From an uncultured Gemmatimonadota bacterium (GTDB lineage: Bacteria > SM23-81 > DAOVCL01), in assembly GCA_964626665.1 (NCBI GenBank), contig CAZVGK010000004.1, positions 1-64,000 of the forward strand: DNA of 64,000 bases. The letters run 5' to 3'. The first letter of the stretch is position 1, and every line of letters starts with the position of its first letter. The notes below the pieces were generated by a model. It worked only from the letters and a program-made list of their open reading frames with translations. It made no database searches and was not told the origin of the DNA. Position numbers and translations under genes: made by a program. Positions 17,061 through 24,557 of the stretch are shown one piece after another.

Positions 17061-19120
17061 TGGGGGGAAAGATCTTAGTCGTCGACGATGAGGAGAGGAT
17101 GTGCCAGAGCATGCAAGCTCTCCTCTCCCAGGAGGGGTATGATGTGGCTACGACCTTAAATGGAAGGGAGGCCATCAAAAGGGCAGAGAAGGAGAGATTC
17201 GACTTGGTGATCACCGATTTGAGGATGTCCCCCTTAGATGGGATAAAGGTCCTGGAGGGGATAAAAAGGGTCTCCCCCCAGACCCTGATAGTTATCCTTA
17301 CCGCTTATGCTACCCTGAATTCAGCCATAGAGGCCATAAGCAAGGGGGCTTATGACTACCTGATGAAGCCGGTGGAATTCCCCGATCTGAAGAAGACCGT
17401 GGAGAGGGGGATGGAGAAACTGCAATGGGAGAGGGACCAGAGAAAACTTATGGCCGAGCTTCAGGAGAAGAACACCCTCTTAGCGCAGAGGCTTAAAGAA
17501 CTGGACGCCGTATATGAGGCCTCCACCTCCCTCATCTCAGTGCTCAAGTTGGAGGATAGCTTAAAGAGGATAGTGAACTTAGCCGCGGATGTCTTGGGGG
17601 CTAAGTTAGGTTCCCTGATGATCTTGGACGAGAAGGAAGGGGTTTTAACCATTAAGGCAGCCAAGGGGTTGGAGGAGGAGATCGTTAGAGAGACGAGACA
17701 AAGGGTGGAGGGAAGCATCTCCGGCTGGGTGGCCCAGAGGGGGGAGCCGCTCTTGGTGGAGGATATCGAGTCGGACTCTCGTTTCCGCCGGCTGAACCGC
17801 GAAAAGTATGAGACCAAATCCCTTCTTAGCGTCCCCTTAAAGGTCAAGGGGAAGACCTTAGGGGTGCTCAATATGAACAACAAATACTCCGGTCAACCCT
17901 TCAACCAATCTGACCTCCGCCTCCTCTCCACCTTTGGCTCCCAGGCAGCCTTGGCCATCGAGAACGCTGCCCTCTTCGAGGAGAGCAGAAAGAGGATCAC
18001 GGAACTTTCCATCCTCTACAGGATAGCCAGTAACCTTCCCTCAGCCGAAAACAGGGAGTCAATGGCCCTGATGGTCTATCTGGCTTTAAAGGAGATAATG
18101 AATGTGGAAGGCTGTTACTGGTTTCAAGGAAGAGGGGGAAACCTGCAGCTCGTCCTCACCTGTAGGGAGGGGGAGATCATCCCTTCACCATCGGTTGTCC
18201 TAAGGTTAGAGGAGGGCCTCACCGCGGAAGATCTCTCCCAGAGGGCAGGGGAGCTCTTGGCCTCTCAGGGTTTACTCCCCTCTGAGGTCAAGGGGAGTTT
18301 CGCCCTCCCCCTAACCATCAAGGGCCAGTTGCAAGGGGTCTTCTCCCTTTCAGCCCCGGAGGAAATCTCCGAACGGGAGAAGAAATTAACCTCCATCTTA
18401 GTCTCTCAGGCCACATCCCTCTATGAGACCCAGAGCGCCATCCTTTCGGCAGGCCAACTGATGATTATGGGCCAACTCGTCTCGGAGATAACCCATGATC
18501 TCAAACAACCCCTGACCAGTATGAGGGGAACCCTGCAAATGCTCAAACAGAGATGGGATAGCCTCCCCTCTAAGGATGAGTATTTGGACCATTTGGAGAA
18601 CGACATTATCCGGATGTCCGACCTGGTCAAGGAGCTCCTGCAATTCTCCAACCCCCAGGAGTATGCCCGCCAGTTAAGGGAGATCAAACCCATTATTGAG
18701 AAAACCCTGGAACTGGTTAAAGGAGAATTACAGGCAAGTGGCATTAAGGCAGAGGTCATCTCCCCTCCAGATCTCCCCTCCCTTCCCCTGAACGAAAACG
18801 AAATTCTGCAGGCACTGATTAACATCATCCTCAACTCAATTCAGGCTATGCCATCTGGAGGGAGGCTGAAGATAGAGCTCAAGGGGTTGCAGAGGAGGGG
18901 GAGGAACTATCTGGGGATAGGAATTTCCGACACCGGGGAGGGGATACCAACTGCGGATTTAGACCACATATTCGATCGCTACTTTACCACCAAAGATGGG
19001 GGAACAGGCCTGGGCCTTTCCATCGTCAAAAGGATTATTGCCGCCCATCAGGGGGAGATAGAAGTAAAAAGCGGTAGAGGAGAGGGGACAACTTTTAACA
19101 TCTATCTGCCTATATTATGA
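17060..19120 (+). CDS. Hybrid receiver-GAF-histidine kinase
   Basis: ILVVDDE/DLRM receiver, GAF (SLLSVPL), THDLKQPL, DTGEG, GTGLGL. Confidence 0.9.
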   Translation: MGGKILVVDDEERMCQSMQALLSQEGYDVATTLNGREAIKRAEKERFDLVITDLRMSPLDGIKVLEGIKRVSPQTLIVILTAYATLNSAIEAISKGAYDYLMKPVEFPDLKKTVERGMEKLQWERDQRKLMAELQEKNTLLAQRLKELDAVYEASTSLISVLKLEDSLKRIVNLAADVLGAKLGSLMILDEKEGVLTIKAAKGLEEEIVRETRQRVEGSISGWVAQRGEPLLVEDIESDSRFRRLNREKYETKSLLSVPLKVKGKTLGVLNMNNKYSGQPFNQSDLRLLSTFGSQAALAIENAALFEESRKRITELSILYRIASNLPSAENRESMALMVYLALKEIMNVEGCYWFQGRGGNLQLVLTCREGEIIPSPSVVLRLEEGLTAEDLSQRAGELLASQGLLPSEVKGSFALPLTIKGQLQGVFSLSAPEEISEREKKLTSILVSQATSLYETQSAILSAGQLMIMGQLVSEITHDLKQPLTSMRGTLQMLKQRWDSLPSKDEYLDHLENDIIRMSDLVKELLQFSNPQEYARQLREIKPIIEKTLELVKGELQASGIKAEVISPPDLPSLPLNENEILQALINIILNSIQAMPSGGRLKIELKGLQRRGRNYLGIGISDTGEGIPTADLDHIFDRYFTTKDGGTGLGLSIVKRIIAAHQGEIEVKSGRGEGTTFNIYLPIL

Positions 19121-20499
19121 AAAGAGAGGAAAACAAGGTACTCCTGGTGGATGATGACCCCCGCATCTGCTGGATGCTTAACGAAGCCCTCAAGGATGAG
19201 GGTTATAAGGTCCTTACCGCCCGAGATGGTCGCACCGCCCTGCGCACAGTGGTCGAAGAGAACCCTCAGGTGATGGTCTTAGACATAAAGCTGCCTGATA
19301 TCAGCGGTCTGGAGGTGCTGGAGAAGCTGCGCCAAGCCGAACAGAGGATAGAGGTAATCATCCTCTCGGGTCATGGGGAGACCAAGAATGTGGTGCAGGC
19401 CATAAAGTTGGGAGCTGCGGACTTTGTCAACAAACCCTTCGATATAGAAGAGGTTAAGATGCATATCCGCAACACCTTGGAGAAGGGCAAGTTAAAGAAA
19501 GAGGTGCAGTTCCTGCGGTCTGAATTGAAGGCCAAGAACTGGTTTGAGAGCTTCATCGGCGATAGCCCGCAGGTGACAGAGATCAAAAGGGTGGTTGAGG
19601 AGGTAGCCGATAGCAGCCTGACTGTGCTCATCCGGGGGGAGAGCGGGACCGGAAAGGAGATCGTAGCCCGCATACTCCACCACATCTCCTCCAGAAAGGA
19701 GGGGCCCTTTATAAAGGTCAACTGCGTGGCCATTCCCAAGGAACTCTTAGAGGCGGAGCTCTTTGGATATGAGCGGGGGGCTTTCACCGGGGCTTACAAG
19801 AGAAAGCCAGGACGGTTTGAACTGGCCAATCAGGGGACCATCTTCCTTGATGAGATTGGCGATATGCCCATTGAACTCCAGGCCAAGCTGCTCCAAGTCT
19901 TAGAACATCGGGAATTCGTCAGGGTGGGAGGAGTGGAGAACATCTCCGTGGATGTGCGGATTATCTGTGCCACAAACCAGGATCTGGAGAAGGGTTTGGC
20001 CGAGGGAAGTATGCGGGAGGACCTCTATTATCGCCTCAATGAGATAACCATCTCCCTCCCCCCTCTCCGCGAGCGGCGGGGGGATATTCCCCTGTTGGTG
20101 GAGCATTTTCTGAAAACCTACAATGAGCAGTTCAACAGGCAATTCCCCCCCCTTTTCCCAGCTACCACGCAGGCCCTGGAGGATTACGATTGGCCGGGGA
20201 ATGTGAGGGAGTTAGAGAACCTGATAAAACAGACGGTAGTGCGGAGCAATGAGGGGATTATCCTCTCAGAGCTGAGAAAGAGAAGCTTCACCGCCCCCAC
20301 TCCATCTGCTCCTCGGGTCAGCCCTGAAGACCTTTCCCTGAAGAGGGCCAGCCAGAGAGCCGTGGAGGAGACAGAGAGCAATCTCATCAGCAAGGTCCTC
20401 AACCAAACCAATTGGAACAGGAGAAAGGCATCCCAGACCTTAGGAATCAGCTACAGATCTCTCCTTTACAAGATCAAGGAATACGGAATTGATTCTTAA
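19117..20499 (+). CDS. Sigma-54-dependent response regulator (NtrC family)
   Basis: Receiver, GESGTGKE, GAFTGA, FLDEIG, WPGNVREL, C-terminal Fis-type HTH. Confidence 0.95.
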   Translation: MKREENKVLLVDDDPRICWMLNEALKDEGYKVLTARDGRTALRTVVEENPQVMVLDIKLPDISGLEVLEKLRQAEQRIEVIILSGHGETKNVVQAIKLGAADFVNKPFDIEEVKMHIRNTLEKGKLKKEVQFLRSELKAKNWFESFIGDSPQVTEIKRVVEEVADSSLTVLIRGESGTGKEIVARILHHISSRKEGPFIKVNCVAIPKELLEAELFGYERGAFTGAYKRKPGRFELANQGTIFLDEIGDMPIELQAKLLQVLEHREFVRVGGVENISVDVRIICATNQDLEKGLAEGSMREDLYYRLNEITISLPPLRERRGDIPLLVEHFLKTYNEQFNRQFPPLFPATTQALEDYDWPGNVRELENLIKQTVVRSNEGIILSELRKRSFTAPTPSAPRVSPEDLSLKRASQRAVEETESNLISKVLNQTNWNRRKASQTLGISYRSLLYKIKEYGIDS

Positions 20500-20780
20500 C
20501 GGACCACAGCGCGGCAGGGCTGCAACCAAACAAAGCCACAGATTACACGGATTGCGCTGACAAGAAACCACTAGCGGGGTTCGTGGATCGCAGCTTGTAT
20601 AGTTCTTTTTTGAGGTGGCTGAACCCCGATTCTGCAGCAGTCAGATCAGGTAAACCCCTTGTAGACCAGCTATGATTTGGCAAGGGGAAAATTTAAAAAA
20701 ATTCAAGGTCGTAGGAATTAGCTAACTGATCTGCTCTTTGAAATTACTACAACCCACAGTTACAATGAGCAAGGGAAGCA

Positions 20781-22190
20781 TCAACCCTTCAAGGTTCTCA
20801 ACTTCTCCATCACCTGAGATACAATGCGACTTATCGGCACAGGATCTGTGGCATAGGCAACAATCCTATCCTCTTCATCGTAAACGGGGAAGCTGCTCTC
20901 TTTAGCCGTCTCTGGCTGCTGAGGCTTTGCCTGTTGGGTCCCTTTCTTGCCCTCTCCCGGCTCCCTCACCTCAAACCCCTGGCCATCTCTGAGGGTGGCA
21001 AAGATGTAGCCCACCATCTTGCGCATACAAGCCCCTATGGCCACCTTATGGAGTTTGCCCCGCTCCCTGAGGCTTTTGTAATAAGCTCCCAACACCGGGT
21101 TTGGTGGTTTACCATTTCTCTTGGGCAAGGCAGCGGCGGAGGCAATGATGTATAAAGCTAAACGCAGGTAGGGAGAGCCTCTCTTGGACATACGCACTCT
21201 GGCTGCCTTATACTTGCCGCTCTGGGAGACCTTGGGATCAATCCCGGCAAAGGCCACAATCTCCCCGGCTGACTTGAACCATTGGAACTCACCCAGTTCA
21301 CCTAAGATGGTAGCCGCTGTTATCGGGCCAGTCCCAGGGATAGTAAGGAGGAGCTCATACTCAGGATCATCCTTGACCAATGCCTTGATCTCTGCAAGCA
21401 GAGCATCTGCTTCTGCCTTCAGGGTGGCAATTGCCCGGGCATAGGATTGTAACCTGCGGATAGCGGTTCTTTCCTCTGCAGGCAGAGTTGGTGAAGCAGA
21501 GGCAAGGGATTTCAAGGTATCCGCCTTCTTCTCTGCCCAGGCAAGGGATTTGTGGGCCAACTTCTTGATCTTCAGGGCCAGGACCTCCCTTTTCTCTTGC
21601 AGGATGCGCTCAGGGGTGGGATACTCAAGGAAGATACCCAGGGCTGTGGGGCCGAATGATTTGCTGAAGGCCTTTTCGTAGAGGAGGAATATCTGATCTC
21701 GCAGGGCGGTGAACCTCCGTTTCCAGTCCGCTGCCTGGTTGATAAAGTTCCATTAATCTCGGCAGAGCTCCTTGAGCTGAATGCGTTCCTGGGTAGGGAC
21801 CTTGGCTGGGGTGAGTATTCCCATGCGGTAGAGGAGGGCTATCCCCTTGGCGCTGATCTTGTCGGTTGTGGCCCTGCGAATCTTGGGGGCATTGGTGAAA
21901 GCCCTCGTTTGGATGGGGTTAACCAGGACCACCTGGAACCCGGCATTGTAGAAGAGGTAGAATACGATCCTGAAGTAGTGGCCCGTGGCCTCCATAACGA
22001 TAATGGGCTTAGCTCCCAAGGATTTCCCTGTCTTCTGAATCTTATGGAGGGCATCCAACATAGCCTTATGGGTATGTTCCATGCGCCAAGGCTCTCCATA
22101 GGGCTGGTTGAAGGAGTCAACCGTTTGGATCTCTGAGAAGCCCTTGGCGATGTCAATACCTGTAACAGGTAGCAGCGATCTGTCAGCCAT
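20781..22190 (-). pseudogene. IS110 DEDD recombinase/transposase interrupted by one in-frame TAA (21753-21755)
   Basis: GIDIAK, MEATGHY, TDKISA, IPGTG, AGIDPKVSQSGK, SKRGSPYLR; both ORF halves are in one frame and the intervening sequence is open. Confidence 0.9.
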
Positions 22191-22199
22191 AAAGCCTCC

Positions 22200-22445
22200 T
22201 TTTGAATGGTTGGTTTGCAGGGGATGGCCCCATCTTTTCTGTGGGGAGAGGATAACCTGGTTCGTTATCCGAGGACAAAGCCTCTACCAGCTCATTCATT
22301 GACCTCTCGCCGGGATGGGGTAGCAGTCTACTTCACGAGAAATCCGCCTAAGCGATTCTCCAAGGGGCTCCAGTCAAAACCCCATCCCCTGCGAGAGGTA
22401 ATTATGCATCGGAAAACCAAAAAGCAAACACATTTTTAAAAACAA
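22200..22445 (-). ncRNA. Predicted IS110 bridge RNA
   Basis: Stem ACCTCTCGC/GCGAGAGGT + GGGATGGGG/CCCCATCCC encloses GGAGCCCCT, identical to the target flank; second loop has AGCTGGT and ACCAG matching the donor junction; boundaries approximate. Confidence 0.75.
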
Positions 22446-22829
22446 CCTAATTATACCAGGGGCTCCGATAAATCGGAGCCCACAAGGTTCGGGTCGCATA
22501 AATGCGACCCCTACGCTTCTCCCCCCGCTAAAGCGGGGGTAAGAGGGCTTTTTAGCCCTCAATGAGTCAATCCGCACTAAAGTGCGGTAGAAATTGGCTA
22601 ATCAAACCCAACTAAAAAACTTTGCTAAAAAAACAAGAGCTTGCAGAATTGTAGTACAGATTGAAATCAAAGCCACAGATTCCACGGATTGAAATGATAG
22701 ATGAAACTGTTTTAGTAGGGAGTGGATCATAGCTCGTCACCCGAAGCAAAGATGGTGGCAGAACCGGGGTTCTGCCACCTCGTTTTTAAGAGGACATAAT
22801 GGGGGTGAGACCCTGCGCAGGAGAGGAGA

Positions 22830-24557
22830 TTGAAGGTGAAGTTAGCCCGACATGCCGGTTTCTGCTGGGGGGTGAGAAGGGCAGTAAATATGGTGCTGGA
22901 GGCAGCCCATCGGAGGGAACCTAATCTCTTTACCTATGGGCCGCTTATCCACAACCCCCAGGTTATTGGCCTGCTGCAAGACCTAGGGGTGGGGATCATC
23001 ACCCATCCCTCAGCGATCACCCCTCAGACAAACCTGTTTATCAGATCCCATGGAATATCCCCCCAGGAGAGGGAGGAAATCAAGGCCAAAGGGGCAAGAA
23101 TCCACGATGCCACTTGCCCCCTGGTGGAGGTTGTCCAGAGAACGATCGCCAAATTTGCCCGGGACGGATATGGGACAATCATCGTGGGCGATGCCGGCCA
23201 TCCCGAGGTCTCCGCCCTGTTGCAGTATGCCCAGGGAAAGGGGATAGCCATCTCCGGAAGGGAAGAGGTGGCCAAACTCCCCCCCTGGGAAAAGGTATGC
23301 GTGGTGGCTCAGACAACTCAGGACAGGGATATATTCAGGGAGCTGGTCAACCTCATCAAGCCAAGATACCCGACCTGTGAGGTCTTCGATACCATCTGTC
23401 CGGCAACCCTCAGAAGACAGGAAGGGGTGCGGCAGCTTGCCCCCCAGGTCGATGCATTGGTGGTTGTCGGGGGAAGAAACAGCGCCAACACAGCCCGCTT
23501 AGCGCAGATCTCCCGCTTCTTAGGGAAACCCACCCTTCAGGTGGAGACCGAGGAGGAAATCAGAGAGAAGGATCTACAGGGGATAAAGTCCATCGGCATC
23601 ACTGCTGGGGCCTCTACCCCCAACTGGATGATCCAAAGGGTGGTGGAGAGGATCGAAAACCTGGATAGGGGAAGGGGGTTGCGGGGCCTTTTCTTTCGCG
23701 GGATAAGGTTTCTCATTCGCAGCAACCTCTACTTGGCCTTTGGTGTAGCCTGTTTCAGCTACGCAGTAAGCCACCTGCAGGGGATAGAACCCCGGCTGGC
23801 CTTCCTCCTGGTAACTGCGGGTTATGTCTTCTCTATGCACCTTTTCAACCACTATACGGACCCTTCTCCGGCAAGCTTCAATGAGCCTTATAGGGTCTCC
23901 TTCTACCGTCATCATAAGGCCATCCTCTTAGGCCTGGCTTCCCTCTCTCTGGCCGGGACCTTAGCTTTGTCCCTATATTTGGGCCTCCTCCCCTTTCTTC
24001 TCCTGGTCTTCATCTCCCTGATGGGAACGGTCTATCGGCTAAAGGTCATCCCCGCAGGTTGGTCCATCATCCATTATAGGAGGCTGGTAGAGATCCCCGG
24101 CTCTAAGGACATCTTCCTGGCCTTGGCCTGGTCCTCGGTCATCGTGTTTCTGCAGGATCTAAGCAGAGCAGATAGCCTCTCCCCCGCCTTTGGGGTGGCC
24201 TTGGCCTTCACCTTCATCCTCTCCCTGGTGAGATCCACCCTCTTCAGCCTCAAGGATATCCAGGGGGACAGGATCGTGGGGAGGGAGACTCTGCCCATAA
24301 TTTGGGGGAAGAAGAGGACAAAGTTGTTTCTCATAGCTGTTTTGGCCTGTCTCACCCTACTTCTTCCCCTTTCCTGGATCTGGAAGTGGACACCCAGCCT
24401 CAGCCTCTGGCTCCTTCTCCCAGTAGCCTACGCTTACCTTTACCTCTACCTCTATCATCGTAGGTTCATATTCCAGGGCATCCTCTCCGAGGCCGTTGTG
24501 GACACTGGCTTCATCCTCTCCGGGGCCACAGCTTACCTTTGGTCCCTTGTGCATTAA
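22830..24557 (+). CDS. ispH: 4-hydroxy-3-methylbut-2-enyl diphosphate reductase fused to a C-terminal UbiA-like membrane domain
   Basis: AGFCWGVRRA, LIHN, DATCPLV, QTT, TICPAT, SANT, AGASTP; about 290-aa multi-TM tail with KDIQGDRIVGRETLP. Confidence 0.9.
   Translation: MKVKLARHAGFCWGVRRAVNMVLEAAHRREPNLFTYGPLIHNPQVIGLLQDLGVGIITHPSAITPQTNLFIRSHGISPQEREEIKAKGARIHDATCPLVEVVQRTIAKFARDGYGTIIVGDAGHPEVSALLQYAQGKGIAISGREEVAKLPPWEKVCVVAQTTQDRDIFRELVNLIKPRYPTCEVFDTICPATLRRQEGVRQLAPQVDALVVVGGRNSANTARLAQISRFLGKPTLQVETEEEIREKDLQGIKSIGITAGASTPNWMIQRVVERIENLDRGRGLRGLFFRGIRFLIRSNLYLAFGVACFSYAVSHLQGIEPRLAFLLVTAGYVFSMHLFNHYTDPSPASFNEPYRVSFYRHHKAILLGLASLSLAGTLALSLYLGLLPFLLLVFISLMGTVYRLKVIPAGWSIIHYRRLVEIPGSKDIFLALAWSSVIVFLQDLSRADSLSPAFGVALAFTFILSLVRSTLFSLKDIQGDRIVGRETLPIIWGKKRTKLFLIAVLACLTLLLPLSWIWKWTPSLSLWLLLPVAYAYLYLYLYHRRFIFQGILSEAVVDTGFILSGATAYLWSLVH

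Follow-up and report, generated by a model that had tools for sequence, protein, structure and literature searches.

The closest described system is that of IS621 of Escherichia coli, whose bridge RNA carries a nine-base left target guide (LTG), equal to the top strand of the left target (LT) plus the core, and a four-base right target guide (RTG), complementary to the core plus two bases, so that an 11-bp target is read (Durrant et al. 2024, PMC11208160; Hiraizumi et al. 2024, PMC11208158); the wild-type target is ATCAGGCCTAC (PMC11208160). Two handshake bases that follow each right guide pair with the opposite duplex after strand exchange (PMC11208158), the donor loop is analogous to the target loop, with a right donor guide (RDG) that pairs discontiguously (PMC11208160, PMC11208158), and a promoter is formed at the circle junction (PMC11208160). 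IS110 elements that target the feet of repeated extragenic palindrome (REP) stem-loops are also already in print, as for ISPpu10 (preprint 10.64898/2026.03.19.712850), and ISPpu10 and ISPpu9 of Pseudomonas putida are both IS110 elements that insert into REPs (10.64898/2026.03.19.712850; PMC12288879). Here we describe an IS110-family element on the minus strand of a 64,000-nucleotide stretch (the window) of contig CAZVGK010000004.1, from an uncultured salt-marsh bacterium. It is very probably, judging from its sequence, an ordinary IS110-group (IS621-type) insertion sequence that uses, or once used, bridge-RNA-guided recombination to move, and of which one copy is present, inactivated not long ago; the mechanism is already known and is not new, the family having been described in 2024.

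The element comprises 1,795 bp (20663-22457, one CT counted) and is bounded by a left CT core at 22459-22458 and a right CT core copy at 20664-20663; unless stated otherwise, all features of the element and its target given below are on the minus strand. CT is present at both junctions as a 2-bp duplication, as judged from the sequence and from the empty paralogous sites, which read GGAGCCC-CT-AC. The left end, from the core to the ATG of the transposase gene, is 267 nt long and the right end 116 nt (20665-20780), as computed by script. No pair of terminal inverted repeats joining both ends was found among the 25 inverted pairs listed out of 66. The CT core, the lack of terminal inverted repeats and a long left end upstream of the gene are all shared with IS621. 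The letters and coordinates quoted in a first-pass annotation of this DNA, which had placed a CT core at both ends, were all checked by script against the minus-strand read, and the CT cores were recovered at the same positions.

The target of the insertion is a REP-like hairpin, GGGCTCC-GATTTATC-GGAGCCC (22460-22481), whose 3' arm GGAGCCC (22466-22460) is the LT; the right flank opens with AC (20661-20662), which is the right target (RT). The unoccupied module followed by CTAC is found on contigs C5, C26 and C12. The exact 11-mer GGAGCCCCTAC has three other occurrences in the 3.17-Mb genome, and each of them lies at the 3' foot of this same hairpin (GGGCTCCGAT..ATCGGAGCCC), with a second hairpin, GGGGTCGCATTTATGCGACCC, ahead of it. 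When the element and one CT were removed in silico, the flanks became colinear with repeat copies on C5, C35, C7 and C2, running from upstream hairpins through ...GGAGCCC-CT-AC... into a downstream GGGATTTACCTGA...GTGGCAGAATCGGGGTTCTGCCACCTC module, with an 8-nt gap to the right of CTAC. Because these paralogous empty sites show the ends of the element, the ends are fixed without the guide argument, and the empty site that had been reconstructed as a REP-type hairpin indeed has unoccupied counterparts in the same genome.

The repeats are REP/BIME-like: short GC-rich hairpin modules with GTAG/CTAC feet, which are combined into mosaics and are present in many copies between genes. Fuzzy genome counts over both strands gave 66 copies of hp1, 15 of hp2, 84 of hp3, 30 of hp4 and 186 of the terminal palindrome, with seven copies aligned, and a fuzzy search with a 26-mer at up to five substitutions returned 20 matches, palindromes counting on both strands. 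As with ISPpu10 and ISPpu9, insertion is into a repeated extragenic palindrome, the LT is the 3' arm of a stem-loop with its 5' arm just upstream and the same CT is duplicated, whereas the host phylum and the repeat family are different. The two flanks also share a 27-nt direct repeat with 93% identity (20528-20554 and 22665-22691) and a 24-nt inverted repeat with 92% complementarity (20612-20635 and 22758-22781), both of which are further modules of the hairpin mosaic and lie outside the element.

The left end folds into a target-binding loop module (22302-22399), in which a stem of 8+10 bp encloses an internal loop, with a hairpin (22360-22337) dividing that loop. The enclosing stem corresponds to inverted repeat I20 (13 nt, 92% complementary), and the 98-nt segment 22399-22302 folds with z = -3.56, only 1 of 200 shuffles being as good, with both target guides unpaired in the centroid structure. 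The LTG is GGAGCCCCU (DNA GGAGCCCCT; 22363-22371), identical at nine of nine positions to flank and core at 22466-22458; it is the sole 9-mer common to the left end and either 300 nt of each flank or the right end, and its match is located exactly at the junction. The RTG is GUAG (22331-22328), the reverse complement of CT+AC, and is followed by the handshake bases AC (22327-22326), so that GUAGAC (22326-22331) is the reverse complement of GTCTAC at the junction of right end and flank; extension of the RTG past 4 nt gave no further match. The order of stem, 9-nt LTG, hairpin, 4-nt RTG and 2-nt handshake is that of IS621, the RTG GUAG is identical to that of IS621, and both 11-bp targets end in CC-CT-AC inside a REP. 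The left end here begins with a 50-nt AU-rich leader instead of the 5' stem-loop of IS621 and has longer linkers before the guides.

A further short complementarity was noted in this region. CCCCUUG (22361-22367), which overlaps the 3' part of the LTG, is complementary to CAAGGGG in the right flank (20655-20661); since paralogous sites read CAAGGAA or similar in place of CAAGGGG, this complementarity looks specific to the present copy.

The donor guides are found downstream of the target loop in the expected order. The left donor guide (LDG) AGCUGGU (22286-22292) has the sequence of the terminal 7 nt of the right end (AGCTGGT, 20671-20665), with no further match when it is extended past 7 nt. 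In the RDG region (22256-22268), ACCAG (22261-22257) is the reverse complement of CT+GGT and, together with the handshake G at 22256, gives ACCAGG, the reverse complement of CCTGGT at the junction of flank and left end; as in IS621, the donor-loop handshake G stands opposite target C7. If a 5-nt bulge is allowed, AU at 22268-22267 may pair with donor A13/T14, which would echo the discontiguous RDG of IS621. In relatives, positions 22266 and 22269 vary, neither of which is a proposed pairing position of AU...ACCAG.

The chance occurrence of the four guide words was assessed by shuffling the left end 200,000 times. The 9-mer LTG arose in 147 shuffles, GTAGAC in 12,377, AGCTGGT in 3,807 and ACCAGG in 9,703; at least two of the four words arose together in 991, and the product of the four frequencies is about 4e-8. 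The first-pass annotation had read the long stem around 22363-22371, the nine-base match, GTAG as complementary to core and right target, and AGCTGGT and ACCAG as left donor and complement of the right donor, and each of these readings was reproduced upon recomputation.

Circularisation would complete a promoter. The left end starts with the -10 hexamer TATAAT (22450-22455), which gains a -35 hexamer only after circularisation: when the right end is fused through one CT to the left end, TTGCCA (20683-20678) comes to lie ahead of TATAAT (22455-22450) with a 17-nt spacer (13+2+2). This junction was computed at the sequence level, and its spacing agrees with that given earlier. In the linear form, no minus-strand promoter-like site was called at TATAAT, and the -35 position is occupied by hairpin sequence. 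A promoter rebuilt at the junction is a further likeness to IS621. In the mechanism we propose, excision would give a circle in which right end, CT and left end form both the donor AGCTGGT-CT-GGTAT and a sigma-70 promoter, TTGCCA-17-TATAAT, and this junction promoter would transcribe the left end. The LTG and RTG would jointly specify the 11-bp GGAGCCC-CT-AC at the 3' foot of the REP-like hairpin, the donor would be held by the downstream guides AGCUGGU and ACCAG, the bases after the right guides (AC and G, respectively) would form a handshake by pairing with the opposite duplex once the strands have been exchanged, and a DEDD/Ser recombinase tetramer would swap the strands at CT. The anatomy of the element, its exact ends, its target family and its relation to IS621 come from the comparisons made here, while expression of the RNA, folding of the donor module and the catalytic step would follow by homology.

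The transposase (bridge recombinase) gene (20781-22190) runs from an ATG at 22190 to a TGA at 20781, with a Shine-Dalgarno sequence GGAGG (22195-22199) 4 nt ahead of the ATG, and has 469 codons plus stop, broken by one in-frame TAA into a first piece of 145 amino acids (aa) and a second of 323 aa. The first piece matches PF01548 (DEDD_Tnp_IS110) over residues 11-144 (E 3.6e-18, 66.3 bits, cut-off 29) and the second matches PF02371 over its residues 133-208 (E 8.2e-24). By alignment, D13, E67 and D110 of the RuvC-like DEDD domain are present, and ...VSQSGKY... aligns with ...YESGSS... of IS621 (S241-G242), the Ser-Gly nucleophile loop, with S324 and G325 conserved at 90% or more among homologues. 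The NCBIfam equivalog NF033542, 'IS110 family RNA-guided transposase' (cut-off 140), gives 140.5 bits for the second piece alone, 72.6 for the first and 226 for P0001, an intact homologue of 469 aa that is 90% identical over the second piece. Against the PDB, P0001 matches the IS621 recombinase (E 1.3e-20) and ISCro4 (E 3.3e-19), and for its AlphaFold model (predicted local distance difference test (pLDDT) score 79.4) the ten best Foldseek matches are all IS621 or ISCro4 chains (E ~4e-13); IS621 is represented in the PDB by entries 8wt6-8wt9. Pfam, NCBIfam and the IS621 structures thus agree with the earlier assignment to IS110. The protein shares RuvC-like and Tnp domains with IS621 at about 22-23% identity, and it is longer, 469 aa versus 326.

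Nine stop-free proteins of 464-479 aa are 50-90% identical to the second piece. Ten loci from a search of genome contigs are all at most 42% identical, and the 80 loci kept of 461 in a metagenome scan are all at most 35% identical; no related locus was found on viral contigs.

Relatives of the left end were sought in four public runs, which were examined as Logan contigs, where starts, circle junctions and rare variants are invisible. In run X24, a contig of 1,321 nt that is about 94% identical to 21233-22461 has its left end in common with the element described here but adjoins a different flank. Its junction reads, in the minus sense, ...GGACAGGTCTAAAAACCTGT|CCCTGGTATAAT, which can also be written ...GGACAGGTCTAAAAACCTGT|CCCT-GGTATAAT, and is the foot of another hairpin, with the target CCTGTCC-CT. 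Two contigs of run X23 follow the window to 22372 and then read UCUGUCCCU-UGGAGAACCGCUCCGGCGGAU where the window has GGAGCCCCU-UGGAGAAUCGCUUAGGCGGAU, so that the guide differs at four of its nine positions on an unchanged scaffold, apart from one U.G pair that has become C-G. The X23 guide UCUGUCCCU matches the X24 target at eight of nine positions, different runs being compared. A further X23 contig reads ...UUUCUC-GUAGCAAGAC-CGGCA-CCCAUCCC versus ...UUUCUC-GUGAAGUAGAC-UGCUAC-CCCAUCCC here, with ..CAAGAC.. in place of ..GUAGAC.., which is compatible with an RTG CAAG and a kept handshake AC, or alternatively with GUAG+CA. If the guide tracks the flank, CCUGUCCCU would be found at the LTG position of the X24 copy.

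Skipping joints of about 1.83-1.96 kb were considered as excision products and rejected, as other letters lie between the two sides, which marks them as paralogous repeat copies. In related copies of runs X22 and X24, 15 nt immediately before the start codon are missing (22191 region).

Several observations weigh against this assignment or narrow what it rests on. The Rfam 15 library gave no match at E <= 1 over 20300-22800, although it may have no bridge-RNA model reaching this far, and a comparison of the left end with 91 loci returned only chance matches of 12-17 nt by blastn-short and nothing by nhmmer. GTAG alone is a weaker point, a 4-mer with two occurrences in the left end. When one mismatch is allowed, 51 sites are found for the 11-mer versus 146 for the reversed control, that is, no enrichment, so that the case for specificity depends on the exact sites. 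The element is present once in the genome (3.17 Mb, 63 contigs) and the six other genomes of the phylum have no transposase match at E <= 1e-20, so that its mobility in this host is only putative. Covariation of guides with targets, whose absence would have refuted the first-pass annotation, may be visible in part and, as far as the fragments reach, speaks in favour of that annotation: the same left end stands at a new hairpin foot in a related copy and a related guide fits that foot at eight of nine positions, but guide and target come from different runs, and the comparison consists of three contig fragments in two runs, the X24 contig's own LTG not being among the rows listed (185 more). 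In the protein, the fourth DEDD residue is Ser113 (codon 21852-21854) where IS621 has D105, whose mutation abolishes recombination in IS621.

The donor module also departs from IS621. The LDG does not pair with the core C, unlike that of IS621, because its next base is A. The two donor guides are mutually complementary because the donor reads CTGGT-CTGGT, and part of the donor match is therefore not independent. These guides had been placed in a second loop and RNA folding had been proposed as a check; the guides are there, in order, and folding supports the target loop, but not a donor loop (z = -0.95, 26 of 200 shuffles as good), for which no supported enclosing stem was found. An IS621-like donor closing stem (GAGAGG/CCUCUC) was tried and rejected, as forcing it gave -43.7 versus -54.0 kcal/mol and it competes with the base of the target-loop stem. 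In the minimum-free-energy fold, ACCAG instead lies in the 7-nt loop of a GGAUAAC/GUUAUCC hairpin with no closing stem.

These features can be read as the marks of a distinct subclade, made up of the nine tail-bearing proteins of 464-479 aa and their elements, in which the donor is recognised unlike in IS621, with an LDG that sits in a single-stranded linker and does not pair with the core and an RDG presented either in a hairpin loop or spanning a long (5-nt) bulge, and in which an enlarged coiled coil, Ser113 and an orphan C-terminal beta-hairpin-helix module are adaptations. We consider this unlikely. The fold that loops out ACCAG and the A after the LDG speak for it, as does the protein. 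Across 120 homologues, the Ser113 position holds Asp in 110, Ser in nine and Glu in one, and all the Ser cases fall in this clade. Compared with the 326 aa of IS621, about 80 additional helical residues separate the RuvC-like domain from the Tnp domain, and about 60 more extend past the end of the family model. The C-terminal tail itself (about 62 aa, 20784-20969) consists of a K/Q/P/E-rich linker followed by FPVYDEEDRIVAYA...helix, and lies beyond the end of the NF033542 model (residue 404) and of the IS621 alignment (408). It is modelled by AlphaFold2 as a low-confidence linker, a beta-hairpin at 435-446 (FPVYDE..RV..YA) and a helix at 453-468, with pLDDT ~70.

In the alignment, the tail is a conserved feature of P0001-3 and P0005-9 that P0010-14 lack, and the extra tail pointed out in the first-pass annotation is, on this evidence, real and confined to one clade. 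Pfam gave no match to it, and the tail alone, searched against 1.84 billion representatives at E <= 0.001, had three matches: a homologue, an 80-aa homologue fragment and a multi-cystatin repeat protein, the last of which we regard as spurious. The phrase 'C-terminal extension' did not occur in the IS110/bridge-RNA literature among the matches listed. Against a separate mode of donor recognition, the changes at 22266 and 22269 would break two of the seven hairpin pairs, with no compensating change among the rows listed, folds of free RNA need not mirror the protein-bound state, and the AU...ACCAG reading resembles the discontiguous RDG of IS621. If such a subclade did exist, it would represent a new variant of donor recognition, with a tail that possibly touches the RNA or the REP hairpin.

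The resident gene is interrupted by the nonsense codon TAA at 21755-21753, which locates the stop that the earlier suggestion to repair it had implied. It replaces Y146, the Tyr of an RDYW motif that is Tyr in 13 of 13 aligned homologues, and with an invariant Tyr lost to a stop the gene cannot supply its own enzyme, so that the copy is immobile by itself; no such codon is a feature of IS621. A Logan contig of run X1 (depth ~131) covers 20400-22512 with no differences, TAA included, but its support for the stop is not independent because X1 may be the source sample. Read from its sequence, this copy is a recently dead member of the family. That the element is instead still autonomously active, the TAA being an assembly or consensus error, or being read through, or its two halves forming a split enzyme, seems very improbable. 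The TAA is indeed the only visible lesion, the remaining frame being open and 86-90% identical to intact 469-aa homologues, and the ends, guides and promoter halves are undamaged; but the stop stands in the X1 contig as well, with the reservation just given, it replaces a Tyr kept in every aligned homologue, the next in-frame start is a TTG at 21560, and the break separates the RuvC-like domain from the coiled-coil/Tnp part, which act within a single chain in IS621.

Finally, that the guide-like matches are mere by-products, with a fragment of REP hairpin captured by the left end and short matches favoured by flanks that are GC-rich and palindromic, is scarcely credible, for although the flank is palindromic, so that GGAGCCC matches its own reverse complement too, GTAG comes twice in the left end and the 5-7-nt donor matches are each just 2-6% events, the identity ends exactly at the 9 nt that finish at the core with no extension into the hairpin loop, the four matches follow the IS621 order in unpaired strands of a significant fold, and relatives replace the same nine positions and keep the scaffold, the replacement fitting another hairpin foot at eight of nine.

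The guides of this IS621-type element can also be set against those of the IS1111 group, in which, as Siddiquee et al. reportedly described in 2024, a seekRNA is located at the right end. The transposase family and the RNA-guided logic are the same. Here, by contrast, the four guides are all upstream of the gene, within the left end; the only complementarity to the target in the 116-nt right end is the 6-mer TTGTAG, and no subterminal inverted repeats are seen among the 25 of 66 inverted pairs listed. This TTGTAG (20747-20752) is the reverse complement of CTACAA, the core plus four right-target bases; it could be read as an 'extended RTG' of 6 nt, but one at the wrong end of the element, and chance (~3%) may account for it.

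A second, unrelated and uninterrupted IS110-family gene is located at G000 C36:18901-19959 (locus L003), with a 353-aa frame and a PF01548 score of 67.8 bits; repeated 8-mers upstream of it were inspected and no obvious guide was found among them. In the window, the element sits in a repeat-filled spacer between two open reading frames on the opposite strand, one of 460 aa (19117-20499, plus strand) that by eye resembles a sigma-54-type response regulator, and one of 575 aa (22830-24557, plus strand) that by eye resembles an IspH-like domain fused to a membrane domain.

Nothing here alters the known IS110/IS621 mechanism. Of the traits that define the IS110 group, those that a sequence can reveal are all present, save for the donor-loop architecture and covariation on a large scale, which are only tentative. 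The locus adds a natural element with a cleanly readable bridge RNA, from a salt-marsh bacterium that is uncultured and belongs to a phylum with seven genomes in the collection searched. For the engineering of bridge recombinases, the clade offers a longer coiled coil, a C-terminal module and Ser in place of D105 as natural variations, together with what may be natural reprogramming of guides. Targeting of the CTAC foot of REP hairpins, with the same RTG (GUAG) as IS621 of E. coli, recurs far beyond Proteobacteria.

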